NCBI GenBank assembly: GCA_963733745.1
Contig: CAVTFE010000088.1
Location: 79,266 to 143,265 of the forward strand
Direction of reading: 5' to 3'
Length of the DNA stretch: 64,000 nucleotides
Source of the DNA: an uncultured bacterium
GTDB taxonomy: Bacteria; Chloroflexota; Ktedonobacteria; Ktedonobacterales; JADMIN01
Shown: piece by piece, positions 88 to 13,976 of the stretch
How the letters are laid out: each line of letters begins with the position of its first letter
How positions within the stretch are numbered: position 1 is the first letter of the stretch
The notes under the pieces: generated by a model
The model's database searches: none
Seen by the model: only the letters and a program-made list of their open reading frames with translations
What the model was told of the DNA's origin: nothing
Program-made: the position numbers and the translations under genes

Positions 88-98
88 TAGCATTTCGC

Positions 99-1250
99 TC
101 AGCACGTGGCGTTGAACGGGACGTCGAGAGTGGTCTTGCCCACTGTGATGGTGATTGTCCCGGTGGTAGAGCGCGCAGCGGTCAGATGCGCCTGGAGCGT
201 GGCGCTCTGCCCGGCGGGGATGGTTCCTTGCGCCGGGGTGATGGCGACCGTCGTTGGAACCTTCGCCTGCCAGGTGACAGGCGCGGCGCTCTGGTTCTTC
301 AACGTCAGCGCCGCCGTTTTCCTCGTGGAGCAGAGCAGAATGAGCGAGGTTGGGTTGGCGACCACCGCCGGAGGAGGCGTCGCGGTCGGCGTCTTCTTCG
401 CTCCGGCGAGAATCGGAGAGCGCACAACCAGGAACGCGACCAGCGCGCCGACGAGTAAGGCTCCCGCCACGCCCAGCACCCAGCGGTTACGCAGCAGCGC
501 TGGAGCTTTCGGGATATCGAATTGTATCCACAGCCCACCAGACTTGTTGGCGCGTACTGACTCGCCAGCGCCGCCCACTGGGGCGTAGTCACGTAGCAGT
601 CCTCGCGACTGGTTCTCTGATGGACTAGACAACTCGTCGCTTGCTGGGGATGAGGCGAAGGCCGCGAACCCCTCTTTAGCGGCGTCGTCCATCGCTGGTC
701 TTGCCCAATCTCCTGGCGAGATCGGCGCCATGAAGGGTCCCAGGGCGTCGAGCGTCTCGAGCAGGAGCGCGACACGGTCCAGTGGCGCACCGATTCGCGC
801 ATTGCTGAAGGCGCGCTCGAGCTGGCTCTTCCCGCTGCCGCCACTCATACGGAACCGTTGCGCCGTCACGCGCAGGGCGTGCATCACATCGTAGAGGATG
901 CGCGCCTCATCGCGGAACGCCGCCAGATCAGCCATGCTCCCGCGCAGCCACGCCGGGCCGCGCTCAGAGGCAAACTGCGAGAGGCGGGTAATCAGTTCGT
1001 CGACGGTGATGAGCGGGAAGATGTCGCCCAGCGCGGCCAGGTCCGCCTCGTCCGAGCGCCAGAGCTTCCCCGGCATCCCGCCCTGCTCGATGGCATCGCC
1101 CAGGCGGATGACTGCGCCCTGCAACTCTTCGAGATACCCCCCCGCTGACCGCATTACAGCGGGCGTATCGCGCAGCGCCGCATACTCGCCAGAGAGGCGC
1201 TCGTCCAGATCGGTCATGTCATCGTTCATCATCCCTGCCCTCGCGTCCAA
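99..1250 (-). CDS. hypothetical single-pass membrane protein with a beta-rich C-terminal domain
   Basis: 383-aa ORF. Central TM helix (WVLGVAGALLVGALVAFLVV), a Pro/Thr linker, then a Thr/Ala-rich C-terminal domain. No family recognised. Confidence 0.6.
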   Translation of the reverse strand: MDARAGMMNDDMTDLDERLSGEYAALRDTPAVMRSAGGYLEELQGAVIRLGDAIEQGGMPGKLWRSDEADLAALGDIFPLITVDELITRLSQFASERGPAWLRGSMADLAAFRDEARILYDVMHALRVTAQRFRMSGGSGKSQLERAFSNARIGAPLDRVALLLETLDALGPFMAPISPGDWARPAMDDAAKEGFAAFASSPASDELSSPSENQSRGLLRDYAPVGGAGESVRANKSGGLWIQFDIPKAPALLRNRWVLGVAGALLVGALVAFLVVRSPILAGAKKTPTATPPPAVVANPTSLILLCSTRKTAALTLKNQSAAPVTWQAKVPTTVAITPAQGTIPAGQSATLQAHLTAARSTTGTITITVGKTTLDVPFNATC

Positions 1251-3484: not shown

Positions 3485-3510
3485 GGCTGCGATGCGACGA
3501 AGTGGCTGCG
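3485..3510. repeat. solitary copy of the GGCTGCGATG / GAAGTGGCTGCG motif
   Basis: ggctgcgatg-cgac-gaagtggctgcg. This is the same motif as the tandem array at 4042-4126 and lies on the other side of the low-GC gene 3553-4020. Confidence 0.7.
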
Positions 3511-3552
3511 GTTTCCTGCTCGGTGCGGGCGCGTTGCTCTTCGAGCAAGAGT

Positions 3553-4020
3553 CTATCCTGAACGTGTCTGCGCAATGGCCCGCTCTAATCCCTGAAGATC
3601 GTCGTCTATCCCGTGGACAAACTGTGTCCAACCAGCATGTAACGCCTCGAGGTTCTCATAGAGCGCGCTATTGATGTCACCTCGATTGATGTCACCTCGA
3701 TTGATGTCACCTCGATTGATGTCACCTCGATTGATGTCACCTCGATTGATGTCACCTCGATTGATGTCACCTCGATTGATGTCACCTCGATTGATGCTAT
3801 CGCGATCTACCGCCTCATTAAGAGATCGCTCGATATTCTTGATCAGCGGCATCTTCGAAGCGAAGTACCTGATATAACCGCGCAATTGCGCATCGTTGAC
3901 ACCATCAATGTTATCTTGATAGTCAGGAGCTGCGGTCTGAGTGAGGGGCTGTCGCCGATGTGCGTTCTCGAGCATCCCAGACAACAACACGCGACTGCTT
4001 CGCTCGATCCGCGATTTCAT
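3553..4020 (-). CDS. hypothetical protein with 8 perfect DINRG pentapeptide repeats
   Basis: ORF in a lower-GC stretch (about 48-50%). The 15-bp tandem repeat is in frame (cga ggt gac atc aat = RGDIN). The start is uncertain: ATG 4020 was chosen, the ORF track extends to 4092 into the 14-bp repeat array, and no clear SD is present. Confidence 0.5.
   Translation of the reverse strand: MKSRIERSSRVLLSGMLENAHRRQPLTQTAAPDYQDNIDGVNDAQLRGYIRYFASKMPLIKNIERSLNEAVDRDSINRGDINRGDINRGDINRGDINRGDINRGDINRGDINRGDINSALYENLEALHAGWTQFVHGIDDDLQGLERAIAQTRSG
3671..3805. repeat. 15-bp tandem repeat ttgatgtcacctcga, 8 perfect copies plus 1 degenerate
   Basis: Units start at 3671, 3686, 3701, 3716, 3731, 3746, 3761 and 3776. 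A degenerate unit spans 3791-3805. Confidence 0.95.
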
Positions 4021-4041
4021 GACGCGCAGGACGTTTGTTAC

Positions 4042-4126
4042 GGCTGCGATGAAGTGGCTGCAGATCATGTGCGATGAAGTGGCTGCGATCAAGTGGCTGC
4101 GATGAAGTGGCTGCGATGAAGTGGCT
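4042..4126. repeat. 14-bp tandem repeat ggctgcgatgaagt, about 5.5 units, non-coding periodicity
   Basis: Units at 4042-4055, 4056-4080 (with an 11-nt insertion), 4081-4094, 4095-4108, 4109-4122, and a partial unit 4123-4126 touching the permease stop codon (4126-4128). Confidence 0.9.
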
Positions 4127-7440: not shown

Positions 7441-8466
7441 CTACGAATACGTCACGTTGAACGAGGCGTTGGGAGTCATCGCCGCGTGATCTTGATTGAA
7501 GATGGCCCAACGCTGGGTACTCCCGCCGATGTAGTACACGCCGATGTTGTGCTTGTTGTAGACGCCGGAGCCAGCGCCCGGATTCCAATTCTGCGTCACC
7601 TGGAGTTTGGCTTCGGGATGACCGTTGAGCGCGGCGATGTTGATAAATGTGACGTTGCCGCTGATGTTGCCCGCTGTGGCTGTCTGCACAAAGCCGTTGA
7701 CGCGCGCGATGTTGAAGGTGACGTTGGTCGGCATCGCGGCGATGTCTTCGTTGAAGACGTACCATGTATTGCCGCTGTGGAAGACGCCGATCGGATGATT
7801 GTTGTAGACCTTCGCGCCGGGCGAGTTCCAGTTGGGGGTCGCGATCATGATCGTGTTGGGATTGTCGCTGCCCGTCTCGCAGCCGATTCTGGTCGTATTG
7901 CCGGAGTTAGAGGCGGCGGTGGCGGTGTGGACACAGAGCGCGGCGTCGCCGACGGGGAAACCGTAATCGACGTTGAATGCCGCGCCGTTGGGGATGGCGG
8001 CGATGTCCTGGTTGAAGATGGCCCAGCGCTGCGTGCTGCCGGCGATATAGAAGACGCCGATGGGATGGTTGTTATAGACGCCAGCGCCATTGGGGTTCCA
8101 ATTCGGCGTGACGCGCAGGATCGCGGTGGGTTGGCAATAGAGTGCGGGGAGGGTGATGATGGTGTAGTCGCCCGCGCTGTTAGATGCGTTAGCGGTATGG
8201 ATGAAGCTCCCGAATGGCGTGTCGGAGCGCGGGCAGGGGATTGGCGTCGGTGATGGAGAACCTGGCGGCGTCGTGGCGGTCGGGATGACCGGCGGCGCGG
8301 TGGGCGTGCCGTTGGTGTCGGCGGTAACGCTCGCCGTCGCGGAGCCAGACGCGACAGGTGTATTCGTTCCTGATGAAGAGGATGGGCCGATAGCGCAGGC
8401 GGCGATGACGGTGGATAACGCCATGAGCGCGACAAGAATGCCAGCGCGCGAGGAGAAGGACCGCAT
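7441..8466 (-). CDS. secreted lipoprotein with three internal ~90-aa repeats (NWNPxGxxVYNNHPIGVF...FNQDxAAMP)
   Basis: Signal peptide plus lipobox (LSTVIAAC). The three repeats are visible by eye. No family recognised. Confidence 0.75.
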   Translation of the reverse strand: MRSFSSRAGILVALMALSTVIAACAIGPSSSSGTNTPVASGSATASVTADTNGTPTAPPVIPTATTPPGSPSPTPIPCPRSDTPFGSFIHTANASNSAGDYTIITLPALYCQPTAILRVTPNWNPNGAGVYNNHPIGVFYIAGSTQRWAIFNQDIAAIPNGAAFNVDYGFPVGDAALCVHTATAASNSGNTTRIGCETGSDNPNTIMIATPNWNSPGAKVYNNHPIGVFHSGNTWYVFNEDIAAMPTNVTFNIARVNGFVQTATAGNISGNVTFINIAALNGHPEAKLQVTQNWNPGAGSGVYNKHNIGVYYIGGSTQRWAIFNQDHAAMTPNASFNVTYS

Positions 8467-8759
8467 GGGCGTCTCTTTCTAACGAGGCGCGCCGACGAGA
8501 GGGAAGAATACAAAGGAGAATCAGGAGAATGGCCGCCGGCTGGCTCGATGCAGTTCAGGATAGCAGAGCATGGGCCAATTGAACAGTGATCTGGCTCACA
8601 TTTTTGCAATAGCGGGATCAAGCGATGTCATCCACAAGGATTCTCCGCGATACCTTGTCAGACGCCGTTGCCGCATCACCGCTCATGTGCCATGATGAGG
8701 GCGGAGAATCGTGAAGGGAGAGCGCATCATCGCGTCAGCGGCGCGGAGACCCCCGGCCT

Positions 8760-10064
8760 TCAGGGCTGGGGAGGAAGCGCCGCCGTTCCTTTCTGGCTGG
8801 CATAGGTGTAGCCGTCTGCTCGATGGATCGGCCGACAGTAGCGCACGTGGATGCCCTGGATTGTGCCAGCGGCCGTCTTGAGGTTGCAGGAGCCAGTGGC
8901 ACGCACGGCCAGCCGCCCCAGGTAGGTTCCTGCCTTTGTGGAAGATGGTGGAACGACGGCGCGCACGATATCGCCGGTGCGGAATCCGCCGACCACACTG
9001 GTGGCCTTGGGCGCTTTGTCGGGGAAGCCGGACGCGTTCGTGCGACACATCTGCCGGCTGTGGCGTCCGGTTGCCGTGATGTGTAGAGGCACGATACCGG
9101 CAACCCTGAGAGTAGCAGGCGTGCTGGCCCCGACGCACGCGGCATCGAGCCAATGTGTCTTGGGCAAGTTCCGCGTGGTCCGATTCCATTTCGTCCGTCC
9201 GCCTGTGCCCGTCTCCACCGGCAATCCCCGCCCCTTGAGCCGGTGGAAGAGCGCCCAGCGGGTGGCGTTGACCGCCGCCGCGTCCCGCAACGGCTGCTTG
9301 GCCTGCGCCTGGATCTCGGGATAGCCGAATTCCGCGGCGGTGCGCGTGCCCTTGGCATCATTGCAGGGTTTGCAGGCGGTCGTGAGGTTCGAGACGCGAT
9401 TGGAGCCGTCACGCGCCTTGGGGACGATGTGCTCGATCTGCAAGGGGACATGCGTCTGGCGACAATATGCGCAGCGCCGCCCGAACTTCTCGAGCAGATA
9501 TTGCCTCACCTCGTAGCCCGCCAGTTCGCCTTGCTGGTACTCGACTCCGCTCATTTCCGCGTGTTGCAGGAGCTGCGTGTCGAATTTGACCAGTTCGAGC
9601 GAAAGCGCGCCGATGGGCGCGATGCGACGCAGGCGCTCCACCCAGGTCACCACATTGGCGATCCGGCTCTCCAGAGAGGGCGGGAGCCAGCCGTCACGCC
9701 GGCGGCGGTTGAGGAAGCGCGCCGGACGGTAACGGGTGTGGCGCTGGCGACGGGAACGGCGGACGGCCCGACGCGCCAGCAGGCGATCGCGGATCTGCTG
9801 CCCGCGATGGGTCAGTTCCGCCGCCCAGACGACCTGCCCCGTGGCGTCATTGACGACCGCTAGCCCCGTGGTCTTGCTGCCGGGATCAATTTTGAGCCGG
9901 AGCGGCGCGGGCTCGTCGGGTGTCTCGCCTTCTTTGAGGATAAGTGTGAAGGGGTATCGCCGCCACACCGCTGCTCGGTGCGCGCTGAGCAGGTAGCGCG
10001 CGCGCCCCGGCGGAATCGGAGCGCACGGTCTGCGCTTCTGGTCGATGACCAAGACAGACGACAT
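8760..10064 (-). CDS. iscB: IscB RNA-guided nuclease (RuvC split by an HNH insertion; OMEGA system)
   Basis: 434 aa. PLMP-like N-terminus (VLVIDQKRRPCAPIPPGRARYLL). RuvC-I IDPGSKTTGLAVV. Arg-rich bridge helix (RRAVRRSRRQRHTRYRPARFLNRRRR). RuvC-II LELVKFD. HNH CAYC..IEHIVPKARDGSNRVSNL..CKPCN. RuvC-III HWLDAACVG. C-terminal GFRTGDIVRAVV...RADGYTY. Confidence 0.9.
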   Translation of the reverse strand: MSSVLVIDQKRRPCAPIPPGRARYLLSAHRAAVWRRYPFTLILKEGETPDEPAPLRLKIDPGSKTTGLAVVNDATGQVVWAAELTHRGQQIRDRLLARRAVRRSRRQRHTRYRPARFLNRRRRDGWLPPSLESRIANVVTWVERLRRIAPIGALSLELVKFDTQLLQHAEMSGVEYQQGELAGYEVRQYLLEKFGRRCAYCRQTHVPLQIEHIVPKARDGSNRVSNLTTACKPCNDAKGTRTAAEFGYPEIQAQAKQPLRDAAAVNATRWALFHRLKGRGLPVETGTGGRTKWNRTTRNLPKTHWLDAACVGASTPATLRVAGIVPLHITATGRHSRQMCRTNASGFPDKAPKATSVVGGFRTGDIVRAVVPPSSTKAGTYLGRLAVRATGSCNLKTAAGTIQGIHVRYCRPIHRADGYTYASQKGTAALPPQP

Positions 10065-10336
10065 GCCACCATCCTTTCGGACTCCGCTTGCGCGGGTAAG
10101 GGTTCCCTCGTCCGTGTTTGGGAGCGGTACTGTGCTCGACGCACGGGCTGTTGTACCCCATCTGCCTGTTTAACGCCGAGCTTAGAGGGCCTGGGACTGA
10201 GAGGCCATCCCAGGGTCTGAACTGAAACACTCCTCCCAAACGGCTCCTGGCGTACAGCCAGGGGACTGGTCAGCATCGGGGCTCTTGCAAGCCCCCGCAT
10301 TCATGCGTGGGGTCGCTGACGACGACAGTTGACTTG
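10065..10336 (-). ncRNA. candidate IscB omega RNA (HEARO-type); 5' end and guide boundary uncertain
   Basis: Non-coding sequence immediately 5' of iscB on the same strand, with nested helices (plus-strand coordinates). These are ccgc-GCAA-gcgg (10084-10095), a long-range gtttgggag/ctcccaaac pair (10116-10124 with 10233-10241), cctggga/tcccagg (10190-10214), cctggc/gccagg (10246-10262), ggggct/agcccc (10278-10295) and gtcagc/gctgac (10269-10274 with 10315-10320). Confidence 0.7.
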
Positions 10337-10630
10337 CGCGGGCGTATCACCGAGAATGGCGCGCTCGAGGTTCGGTTACCAGCGGGATTGCCGTCCGGCG
10401 ATGTGTTCGTGCGTCTGCGGATTCCCGATCACGAGACAGGTCCAGAGGTTCCACGGACGGATGAGGAGGTACAGGCGCTGATGTCGCAACCGCCTATGCC
10501 CCGCGAGGACTTTCTGACTTGGCTTGCCGCCGCTCCACCTGACGAGCCGTGGGGCGATCTGGCGGGCGACGAGGATGCGGCGGAGTATGTACATGAGCGC
10601 CGTCAGCGGTCAGTGATCCTGACAGAGTAA
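10307..10630 (+). CDS. hypothetical small protein
   Basis: 107-aa ORF from GTG 10307 (alternative TTG 10334). The N-terminus ...GRITENGALEVRLPAGLPSGDVFVRLRI resembles small swapped-hairpin/antitoxin-like beta domains, and the tail is acidic. The first codons overlap the putative omega RNA on the opposite strand. Confidence 0.4.
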   Translation: MGSLTTTVDLRGRITENGALEVRLPAGLPSGDVFVRLRIPDHETGPEVPRTDEEVQALMSQPPMPREDFLTWLAAAPPDEPWGDLAGDEDAAEYVHERRQRSVILTE

Positions 10631-12755: not shown

Positions 12756-13976
12756 ATGCAGTTAGTGGAACAGCACCGTATTGACCGCCACGACCCCCGG
12801 TGGGCGGCGATTGACGTAGCGGCCTTTGCAAGCAAGAACCTCTACAACGCTGCACTCTACCTTACCCGCCAGGCATACATCACGAACGGTACAGTCATTG
12901 GCTATGCCGAGCTAGACACGCTCATGCAGCCTACCGAGCAGTACCGTATGCTCCCCGCCAAGGTGGCCCAATGGGTGCTAAAGCAAGTTACCCTCGCCTG
13001 GACGAGCTACTTCGCCGCCTGTCAGGAATGGGTAGCCCATCCCGAGAAGTTCCTGGGTCATCCCAAGCTACCCAAGTACCGCGAGAAGCAGGGCCGGAAT
13101 GTCCTCACCTATACCACCCAGGCTATCAGCCGCCATCCCAGGAATGCGGGCTGGATTGTGCCGTCCGGACTGGCGATTCGCGTCGCCACCAAACATTCCT
13201 TCCAGACGATTGCACAGGTGCGCATCGCACCGCATGCCACCCATTACACGGTGGAGGTCATCTATGAACAGGAGGTATTCCCCGCCGACGTCAATCCACA
13301 GTGGGTCGCGGGTATTGATCTGGGGGTCAACAATCTGGCGGCGCTAACCGCAAACCAGCCAGGCTTTACGCCTCTTCTGGTCAACGGGCGTCCACTCAAA
13401 GCGTTGAACCAACTCTACAACAAGCGCCGCGCTCACTATCAAGCCTTGCTCCTGGAAGGGCAAACTACCTCCCATCGCCTTGATGTCCTGACCAACAAGC
13501 GCAAACGACAGGTCGACAGTTACCTCCATGTGGCAAGTCGTCGCATCGTTGATCACTTGGTTCGGCAGCGTATTAGCATGCTCATCATCGGGAAGAATGA
13601 GGGGTGGAAGCAAGAGGTCCAGTTGGGCAAGCGGACCAATCAGACGTTCGTCTTCCTCCCGCATGCCCGATTCATCCAGATGTTGACCTATAAGGCAGAA
13701 CTGGTCGGCATCCGCGTCCTCCTGACAGAGGAGAGTTACACTTCCAAGTGCAGCTTCCTGGAGAGCGAGCCACTGGGTCGTCAGGTCGAGTACGTTGGGA
13801 AGCGGGTGAAGCGTGGGCTGTTTGTGACGGCGACGAGTCGGCGGATCAATGCCGATGTGAATGCGTCCTACAACATGATCGTCAAAGTGGTCCCAAACGC
13901 CTTCGGCAATGGGAGAGAGGGTGTGGTAGTTCACCCTGTCAGGCTCAACCTGACGAACCGACGGCTGGCGGCATAG
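12756..13976 (+). CDS. tnpB: TnpB (IS200/IS605 OrfB, IS1341-like), apparently intact
   Basis: 406 aa. RuvC-I AGIDLGVNNLAAL, RuvC-II LIIGKNEGWKQE, RuvC-III INADVNASYNMI. The zinc-finger region retains only one Cys (SYTSKCSFLESE...KRGLF). Confidence 0.9.
   Translation: MQLVEQHRIDRHDPRWAAIDVAAFASKNLYNAALYLTRQAYITNGTVIGYAELDTLMQPTEQYRMLPAKVAQWVLKQVTLAWTSYFAACQEWVAHPEKFLGHPKLPKYREKQGRNVLTYTTQAISRHPRNAGWIVPSGLAIRVATKHSFQTIAQVRIAPHATHYTVEVIYEQEVFPADVNPQWVAGIDLGVNNLAALTANQPGFTPLLVNGRPLKALNQLYNKRRAHYQALLLEGQTTSHRLDVLTNKRKRQVDSYLHVASRRIVDHLVRQRISMLIIGKNEGWKQEVQLGKRTNQTFVFLPHARFIQMLTYKAELVGIRVLLTEESYTSKCSFLESEPLGRQVEYVGKRVKRGLFVTATSRRINADVNASYNMIVKVVPNAFGNGREGVVVHPVRLNLTNRRLAA

Follow-up and report, generated by a model that had tools for sequence, protein, structure and literature searches.

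The 64,000 nucleotides (nt) analysed here, called the window below, come from contig CAVTFE010000088.1 of an uncultured Ktedonobacterales bacterium (phylum Chloroflexota; assembly GCA_963733745.1). On the minus strand they contain an open reading frame (ORF) resembling iscB, the gene of an RNA-guided nuclease, and a first-pass annotation made from the letters alone had described this ORF and a structured RNA upstream of it as the feature. We find that both are intact and that the feature extends beyond them to a whole transposon. Positions 8731-10320 very probably represent an intact, recently mobile, non-autonomous ISC element that encodes an ωRNA scaffold and an IscB nuclease only (Table 1).

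Boundaries and mobility of the element

The ends of the element were read from natural empty sites. Two contigs, L082 (JGI 3300047089) and L083 (ENA ERZ25039520), align without gaps to window position 8730 joined to 10321. The BLAST alignments, at 92-98.5% identity, break exactly at 8730|10321, and the gene order around the junction (FtsX, DUF7452, small gene, 75-aa (amino acid) gene, MIP) is kept. The natural empty-site sequence in L083 includes …CAAGTCAACTGTCGTCATGATGCGC…. As the empty sites are collinear with 8730|10321, the element is exactly 8731-10320. Read on the IscB strand, its termini are 5'-GTCAGC…GACGCG-3', and it sits between …CAAGTCAACTGTCGTC and ATGATG…, splitting the ATG of a host gene.

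The insertion thus lies next to a fixed 4-5-nt motif outside the element. This matches the N|ATGA target of ISC elements, which have 5'-GT(CA)...CG-3' termini and ends in common with IS605 elements (Kapitonov 2016, PMC4810608). Distal ends of relatives are followed by ATGA, ATGG, ATGC or GTGA, an ATGN pattern that was read by eye from the aligned sequences. Three features recur at the 3' end of iscB in relatives: a hairpin whose loop contains the stop codon, a box similar to GGGGTCTCCGCGCC and, ~9 nt further on, an ATGA, ATGG or GTGA motif.

A DNA fold of plus-strand positions 8722-8785 gave the hairpin of the IscB-distal, left-end (LE) type an 8-bp stem (8751-8758/8764-8771) and, including an outer stem, -19.9 kcal/mol. 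This hairpin (8751-8771) and the one at the right end (RE; 10292-10312) have alike CCCC...GGGG stems, and relatives have a hairpin of differing sequence at the same distal place. Along the plus strand, the presumptive top strand for the transposase TnpA, the order is TCAT, cut site, 19 nt, LE hairpin 8751-8771, RE hairpin, 8 nt and cut site. IS608 is similar in this respect, its hairpins lying 19 and 10 nt from the cut sites. The two subterminal hairpins stand in place of terminal inverted repeats, as in the IS200/IS605 superfamily, and are the presumed TnpA binding sites.

A second copy of the element was found at an unrelated locus (L084, ENA ERZ25039556), in the gene order TetR, MFS, IscB, methyltransferase, GcvP. 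This copy is 1,588 bp long and 93.5% identical to the window element; the similarity is confined to 10320-8731 plus the ATGAT target, and the copy starts with GTCAGC and ends with GCG, as in the window. The 16-mer upstream of it, CCGATGCGAGGAGAAC, is unrelated to the sequence at this place in the window, whereas its downstream flank again begins with ATGAT. The filled site of the window recurs in a second strain (L001, 98.6% identity), and filled and empty alleles are found among strains that are 96-98% identical. As the insertion is polymorphic among such closely related strains, it is young.

The ωRNA scaffold and its guide

The Rfam family HEARO (RF02033), the sole Rfam family matched in the window, was found at 10320-10096 of the minus strand with 123.4 bits (gathering score 83; E = 4.6e-25). 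The match spans model positions 1-211 of 211, so that it is not truncated, and it ends 32 nt 5' of the iscB ATG. A structured upstream RNA of the HEARO type had been proposed in the first-pass annotation, with a covariance-model search over the upstream region as its check; the search was positive, at full length and above the gathering score. A 9-bp long-range pairing described there (10116-10124 with 10233-10241) corresponds to the long-range helix in the HEARO model, and a GNRA-capped stem is represented by GCAA-capped stems at 10295-10278 and 10095-10084.

The second of these stems lies beyond the Rfam model, and its pairs covary (alignment columns 271-280). This agrees with the remark by Meers et al. 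(2023, 10.1101/2023.03.14.532601) that RF02033 is without downstream (3') elements. In an RNAalifold analysis of 19 sequences, 32 of the 45 consensus pairs showed compensatory changes on both sides, with a covariation term of -11.5 kcal/mol, and the fold energy of the ωRNA was better than that of 200 out of 200 shuffled sequences (z = -2.78). When the 20 closest loci were searched, 18 had HEARO upstream of iscB, and one of the two misses (L007) is without upstream sequence.

The start of the scaffold is fixed at GTCAG (10320), as similarity begins exactly there in 18 relatives, with unrelated sequence 5' of it. Given a guide length of 16 nt, taken from work on OgeuIscB (PMC9640706), the putative guide CAAGTCAACTGTCGTC occupies 10321-10336; it had been placed there at first sight, and the relatives and empty alleles agree with this to the base. 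The guide sequence occurs once in the window. Where the site is empty, ATGATG comes after it, and this is the predicted target-adjacent motif (TAM). The guide had earlier been assigned to the first codons of ORF 10307-10630; it is antisense to codons 1-6 of the host gene, the start at 10307 is an artefact and the native ATG is the one that was split.

The IscB protein

By its sequence, the 434-aa product is an IscB with intact catalytic residues, which makes this copy a candidate active nuclease. The landmarks described in the first-pass annotation are present in the order given there. They comprise IDPGS (residues 59-63), an Arg-rich stretch (~98-123) and LELVKFD (156-162) in the N-terminal half, CAYC (198-201), IEHIVP (210-215) and CKPCN (231-235) in the HNH domain, and HWLDAAC (304-310), GFRTGDIV (360-367) and RADGYTY (415-421) in the C-terminal part. 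The NCBIfam equivalog NF040563 (guided_IscB) matched with 430.3 bits against a cutoff of 175. Pfam RRXRR (PF14239, PLMP) covered residues 4-179 with its whole profile (1-174 of 174, 222 bits), and Pfam HNH, HNH_5 and HNH_4 matched residues 198-247. The top matches among PDB sequences were IscBs, namely TbaIscB (8e-35), HfmIscB (8e-27) and OgeuIscB (2e-25).

In a residue-level alignment, D60, E157, H212, H304 and D307 lie opposite OgeuIscB D61, E193, H247, H340 and D343, so that the RuvC D/E/H/D set and the HNH histidine are identical to those of OgeuIscB and other solved IscBs, as the earlier reading had expected. In OgeuIscB, D61, E193, H340 and D343 belong to RuvC and H247 to HNH (Kato 2022, PMC9640706). 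The CxxC...CxxC zinc ligands are C198, C201, C231 and C234. The RuvC residues and the Arg-rich segment 98-123 are invariant in 56-66 relatives, and when 65 relatives translated from genome contigs were aligned with it, the window IscB carried the consensus residue at all 115 of the 115 columns that are conserved to at least 90%. PCAP at 13-16, the equivalent of PLMP, aligns with PLMP 14-17 of OgeuIscB; P13 and P16 are conserved, and the variant is common among the closest relatives (10 of 56). Within residues 344-434, G346, F347, P348, G364, D365, D417, G418, Y419 and Y421 are conserved in the clade.

Table 1. Features of the ISC element and its insertion site (window coordinates; residue numbers for parts of the protein).
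Feature	Position	Strand	Remarks
ISC element (IS200/IS605 superfamily), very probably complete and non-autonomous	8731-10320	minus	1,590 bp, no target-site duplication
iscB ORF	8760-10064	minus	434 aa
iscB: PCAP	residues 13-16		
iscB: RuvC-I	residue D60		
iscB: bridge helix	residues ~98-123		
iscB: RuvC-II	residue E157		
iscB: HNH	residues C198, C201, H212, N226, C231, C234		
iscB: RuvC-III	residues H304/D307		
iscB: C-terminal WED/TI-like region	residues ~344-434		
ωRNA scaffold (Rfam HEARO)	10096-10320	minus	RF02033 match
Scaffold P1	10320-10315 with 10274-10269	minus	
Scaffold hairpin	10312-10292	minus	
Scaffold GCAA-capped stem	10295-10278	minus	
Scaffold long-range helix	10241-10233 with 10124-10116	minus	long-range helix of the HEARO model
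ωRNA 3' extension past the Rfam model	10065-10095	minus	GCAA-capped hairpin 10095-10084, then iscB Shine-Dalgarno AAAGGA
Putative ωRNA guide (flank-derived)	10321-10336	minus	5'-CAAGTCAACTGTCGTC-3', antisense to host-gene codons 1-6
Target site and predicted TAM	8726-8730	minus	5'-ATGAT-3' (ATCAT on plus), outside the element, directly 3' of its distal end
Subterminal hairpin, IscB-distal (LE-type) end	8750-8771	minus	iscB stop codon in the loop
Body of the disrupted host gene	10321-10630	plus	native product 103 aa, MTTVDLRGRI...

Weighing the readings

Several observations weigh against an intact, recently mobile element with a working nuclease. No Y1 TnpA is present in the 1,590-bp element, the content of which is ωRNA and iscB only, and no Y1_Tnp match was found among the genes called on related contigs or the large ORFs of the window. 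As ISC elements are defined as non-autonomous, no TnpA is expected in cis. The TAM, ATGA(T), is a prediction read from the flanks. When the family profile was compared with PDB sequences, the alignment to solved IscBs stopped at ~343, which leaves out the C-terminal 90 aa taken as the TAM-reading region. The AlphaFold model, built from an input alignment of only sequences at least 71% identical, has a mean pLDDT (predicted local distance difference test score) of 58 and falls below 50 from residue 287. Its beta-strands at 366-405 lie in this low-confidence part and are unreliable. In a Foldseek search with the model, IscB complexes ranked first at a TM-score of ~0.3, the C-terminus not being usable. 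Further points concern transcription of the guide. The guide-adjacent host gene points away from iscB, and its own promoter region (8467-8730) is now antisense into iscB. A crude sigma-70 consensus scan, uninformative for Chloroflexota, gave no promoter-like site on the minus strand upstream of the guide, and guide-bearing ωRNA may for this reason be scarce at the locus. A guide-bearing transcript would need read-through from the two genes that lie upstream and are co-oriented with iscB, the 75-aa gene (10859-10632) and the MIP gene (11769-11062), across ~300 nt.

These transcriptional points would fit a copy that is structurally intact but silent here: inserted opposite in orientation to the gene it hit, it would make little or no guide-bearing ωRNA, leave IscB with no guide to use at this locus and be carried as a passenger awaiting decay. 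The observation that IscB elements are usually retained behind co-oriented upstream genes (Meers et al., 10.1101/2023.03.14.532601) adds to this case. We nevertheless consider a silent copy unlikely. The two next upstream genes are co-oriented, and the same scan found no terminator-like site between them and the guide; ORF and RNA are free of lesions; the filled site persists in the second strain L001; and the promoter scan used a crude consensus.

A decaying relic, with a pseudogenised IscB that has lost nuclease competence and keeps its motifs by chance owing to a recent origin, is very improbable. Most copies of insertion sequences eventually decay, and frameshifted relatives with premature stops exist (L021, L062), but here the ORF is full-length, at consensus in every conserved column and equipped with all catalytic residues, the ωRNA clears the gathering threshold along the full length of the model, and the insertion is young. 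The Pfam HNH matches, and the JGI label '5-methylcytosine-specific restriction endonuclease McrA' that many homologs carry, would fit an HNH/McrA-type restriction or homing endonuclease that works alone, without an RNA guide, and has a structured 5' untranslated region; we give this practically no credence, as the HNH interrupts a split RuvC that is accompanied by a bridge helix and an RRXRR/PLMP N-terminus, the equivalog match is IscB, IscB-ωRNA-DNA complexes rank first by sequence and by fold, and the upstream RNA belongs to an ωRNA family. A CRISPR-associated miniature Cas9 or a CRISPR-linked IscB with array-derived guides, hinted at by weak sequence similarity to Cas9d and YnpsCas9 and by the CRISPR-associated IscBs mentioned in PMC12660989, is likewise extremely improbable: no CRISPR repeat family, array or cas gene was found nearby in an Rfam scan of the window and among the tandem repeats within 22 kb (14-15-nt units without spacers, at least 4.6 kb off), the Cas9d model scored 41.6 against a cutoff of 375, and the guide is flank-derived and changes with the insertion site.

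Proposed mechanism

The boundaries, the flank-derived position of the guide, the conserved target motif and the filled/empty polymorphism are direct observations, and the further steps proposed here follow from analogy with the family. Transcription driven from the flank would yield an ωRNA whose 5' 16-17 nt are the flank sequence CAAGTCAACTGTCGTC. The IscB-ωRNA complex would recognise this sequence where it is followed by the ATGA(T) TAM, that is, in the empty allele or in the donor joint left after excision by TnpA. It would cleave both strands, with HNH (H212) acting on the target strand and RuvC (D60/E157/H304/D307) on the non-target one. The filled locus would be spared, since the guide match there is followed by the scaffold and not by the TAM, and recombination with a filled copy would reinstate the element. 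Since the element offers no space for a Y1 TnpA, movement to a new site would require one in trans; this TnpA would act on the two subterminal hairpins, with insertion 3' of TCAT on the transposase top strand. Earlier work (10.1101/2023.03.14.532601) describes a scaffold located at the RE, a guide that lies beyond the element, cleavage of the donor joint and a TAM common to TnpA and IscB.

More speculatively, and with the odds against it, the predicted ATGA(T) TAM of the clade may be read by a C-terminal domain too divergent for its sequence to be recognised as akin to the TI (TAM-interacting) domains of solved IscBs, and the choice of [A/G]TGA targets may be adaptive. Many relatives of the element lie precisely at the start codon of a co-oriented host gene, often with the iscB stop overlapping it (TGATG). 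So placed, guide, ωRNA and iscB would all be transcribed from the promoter of the host, and translational coupling would restore expression of the host gene. The window copy would then be an informative exception, inserted on the other strand of the palindromic TCATGA with loss of the start codon.

In a rough count over the 3' ends of the IscB elements at loci L002-L081, in which spurious ORFs in GC-rich DNA were not controlled for, 40 of 73 relatives have a co-oriented ORF (100 codons or more) with its start -5 to +75 nt from the iscB stop, mostly ATGA (18) or ATGG (10). The [A/G]TGA target would thus often fall on a host start codon. The iscB stop overlaps the host start (TGATG or ATGA) in L005, L009, L012 and L020, among others, the neighbours of which, judged by eye from translated N-termini, are a lipoyl-domain E2, a deformylase-like, a DNA methylase-like and a Fur-like protein, respectively.

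The interrupted host gene

The host gene is a real gene, to judge from its homologs and the restored junction, and its start codon is split by the insertion. The element now puts 1.6 kb between the body of the gene and its Shine-Dalgarno GGGAG (8716-8720) together with the first two letters of the start codon (AT, 8729-8730), and joining the flanks at 8730|10321 restores Shine-Dalgarno, spacer and ATG ACG ACA GTT…. The 103-aa product has 16 homologs (48-95% identity) with N-termini MTTVDL..., and longer gene calls among the homologs carry VKGERI, the translation of 8711-8728. Save for the split start codon, the reading frame is intact. The GTG start at 10307, judged from the same junction, is an insertion artefact inside the element; as it is in frame, it could yield an N-terminally altered product (MGSLT…).

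The host protein (MTTVDLRGRITE…WGDL…AAEYVH…) is conserved and found in Ktedonobacterales metagenome-assembled genomes (MAGs) and soil-type metagenomes; it had no Pfam or NCBIfam match. Codon-position GC had raised the reading of ORF 10307-10630 (plus) as a shadow of a minus-strand 72-aa ORF, which was rejected in view of the 16 homologs of the plus-strand product. The 72-aa minus-strand gene call (10376-10594) is instead an antisense shadow of the plus-strand gene, the GC values of 0.63/0.48/0.79 having favoured the wrong strand. The local annotation is thereby corrected: the small neighbouring gene is real and disrupted at its start, and the 72-aa call is a shadow ORF. Divergent from the disrupted gene, 7441-8466 (minus) encodes a protein of 341 aa that looks secreted and contains three DUF7452 repeats (234 bits), and the 264-bp region 8467-8730 would hold the promoters of both genes.

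Relation to known systems and distribution

The class is not new, as the first-pass annotation had stated: the IscB family comprises at least 8,000 proteins at E ≤ 1e-30, and NCBI names near relatives 'RNA-guided endonuclease IscB', where JGI mislabels many as McrA. The IscB/ωRNA pair, ISC transposons, the ATGA target and the homing model have all been published, and the locus is conceptually little new. Its practical value lies in exact ends, a second copy, and a natural guide that comes with natural cleavable targets (the empty alleles in related strains) and a TAM predicted as 5'-ATGA(T). As the locus is fully resolved, a 434-aa ortholog can be tested with the right RNA and target, with no guessing of boundaries.

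Among described elements, ISC1-1_MA of Microcystis aeruginosa (PMC4810608) is likewise IscB-only and non-autonomous, has 5'-GTCA ... CG-3' ends, lies 5' of ATGA without target duplication and had its boundaries set by filled versus empty sites, but it comes from Cyanobacteria, not Chloroflexota (order Ktedonobacterales), and its sequence differs. Unlike ISC elements with a partner, the window element has no IS605/TnpA partner with shared ends that we found, the search having compared its ends with the TnpB gene at 12756-13976, which gave no convincing shared repeats. The IscB elements of Ktedonobacter racemifer belong to the same class and have the same layout, with the stop codon in a hairpin and then ~30 nt to the element end; their IscBs are 55-58% identical at the amino acid level over the full length, including the C-terminal region, although ~43% of residues differ. 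One of them, KraIscB-1, was reportedly characterised biochemically (Altae-Tran, 2021), and the numbering of the KraIscB mutants at E157 and H212 presumably coincides with that of the window IscB. KraIscB-1 has also been named as a reference effector (PMC9755519).

OgeuIscB (PDB 7xht, 8csz, 7utn; PMC9640706) has the same domain order (PLMP, RuvC-I, bridge helix, RuvC-II, HNH, RuvC-III) and likewise a HEARO-type ωRNA with a ~16-nt 5' guide. It differs in length (496 versus 434 aa), is alignable only to ~343, its TI domain having no detectable similarity in sequence, and has the TAM NWRRNA, compared with the predicted ATGA(T) here. With GstIscB and its element ISGst (Meers 2023, 10.1101/2023.03.14.532601), the window element has in common a scaffold at the RE, a guide outside the boundary, a TAM that would equal the transposase target motif and natural empty sites that carry the guide match and the TAM. 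Unlike ISGst, which has an AT-rich TAM, it has a predicted TAM of the ATGA type, an oppositely oriented upstream neighbour and no known TnpA partner. A split RuvC with an Arg-rich bridge helix is common to the window IscB, Cas9 and IsrB, as is the HNH insertion with Cas9 and the PLMP domain and ωRNA with IsrB. Unlike Cas9, the window IscB is without REC lobe, CRISPR array and tracrRNA, and unlike IsrB it has an HNH domain.

The closest relative in a genome, from a Ktedonobacterales MAG, is 77% identical. Bins with the labels Proteobacteria, Poribacteria, Peptococcaceae and several cyanobacteria also contain IscBs, 54-67% identical to the window protein (L012, L019, L042, L044, L051, L053, L067, L075, L078-L080), which suggests that the clade has spread horizontally or that contigs were binned wrongly. 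On L013, a marginal Rfam match to CRISPR-DR28 (437-460, minus; 35.8 bits, gathering score 35, E = 0.019) lies ~2.3 kb upstream of a relative of the window IscB; the match covers a single repeat length and is probably due to chance.

At 2.4 kb from the IscB element, 12756-13976 (plus) contains a 406-aa TnpB-type gene (Pfam OrfB_IS605 and Cas12f1-like TNB). As this gene is present at the syntenic position in L083 (6443-7663) and absent from the related JGI contig carrying P0010, it represents a second, independently polymorphic OMEGA-type insertion. Two tandem repeats closely follow the FtsX-family gene of the window, a perfect one of 15 nt, ATTGATGTCACCTCG, in 8.5 copies (3670-3796), and one of 14 nt in 6.3 copies with 81% matches (4042-4126). 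Contig L001, at 98.6% identity, lacks the stretch ~3495-4092.

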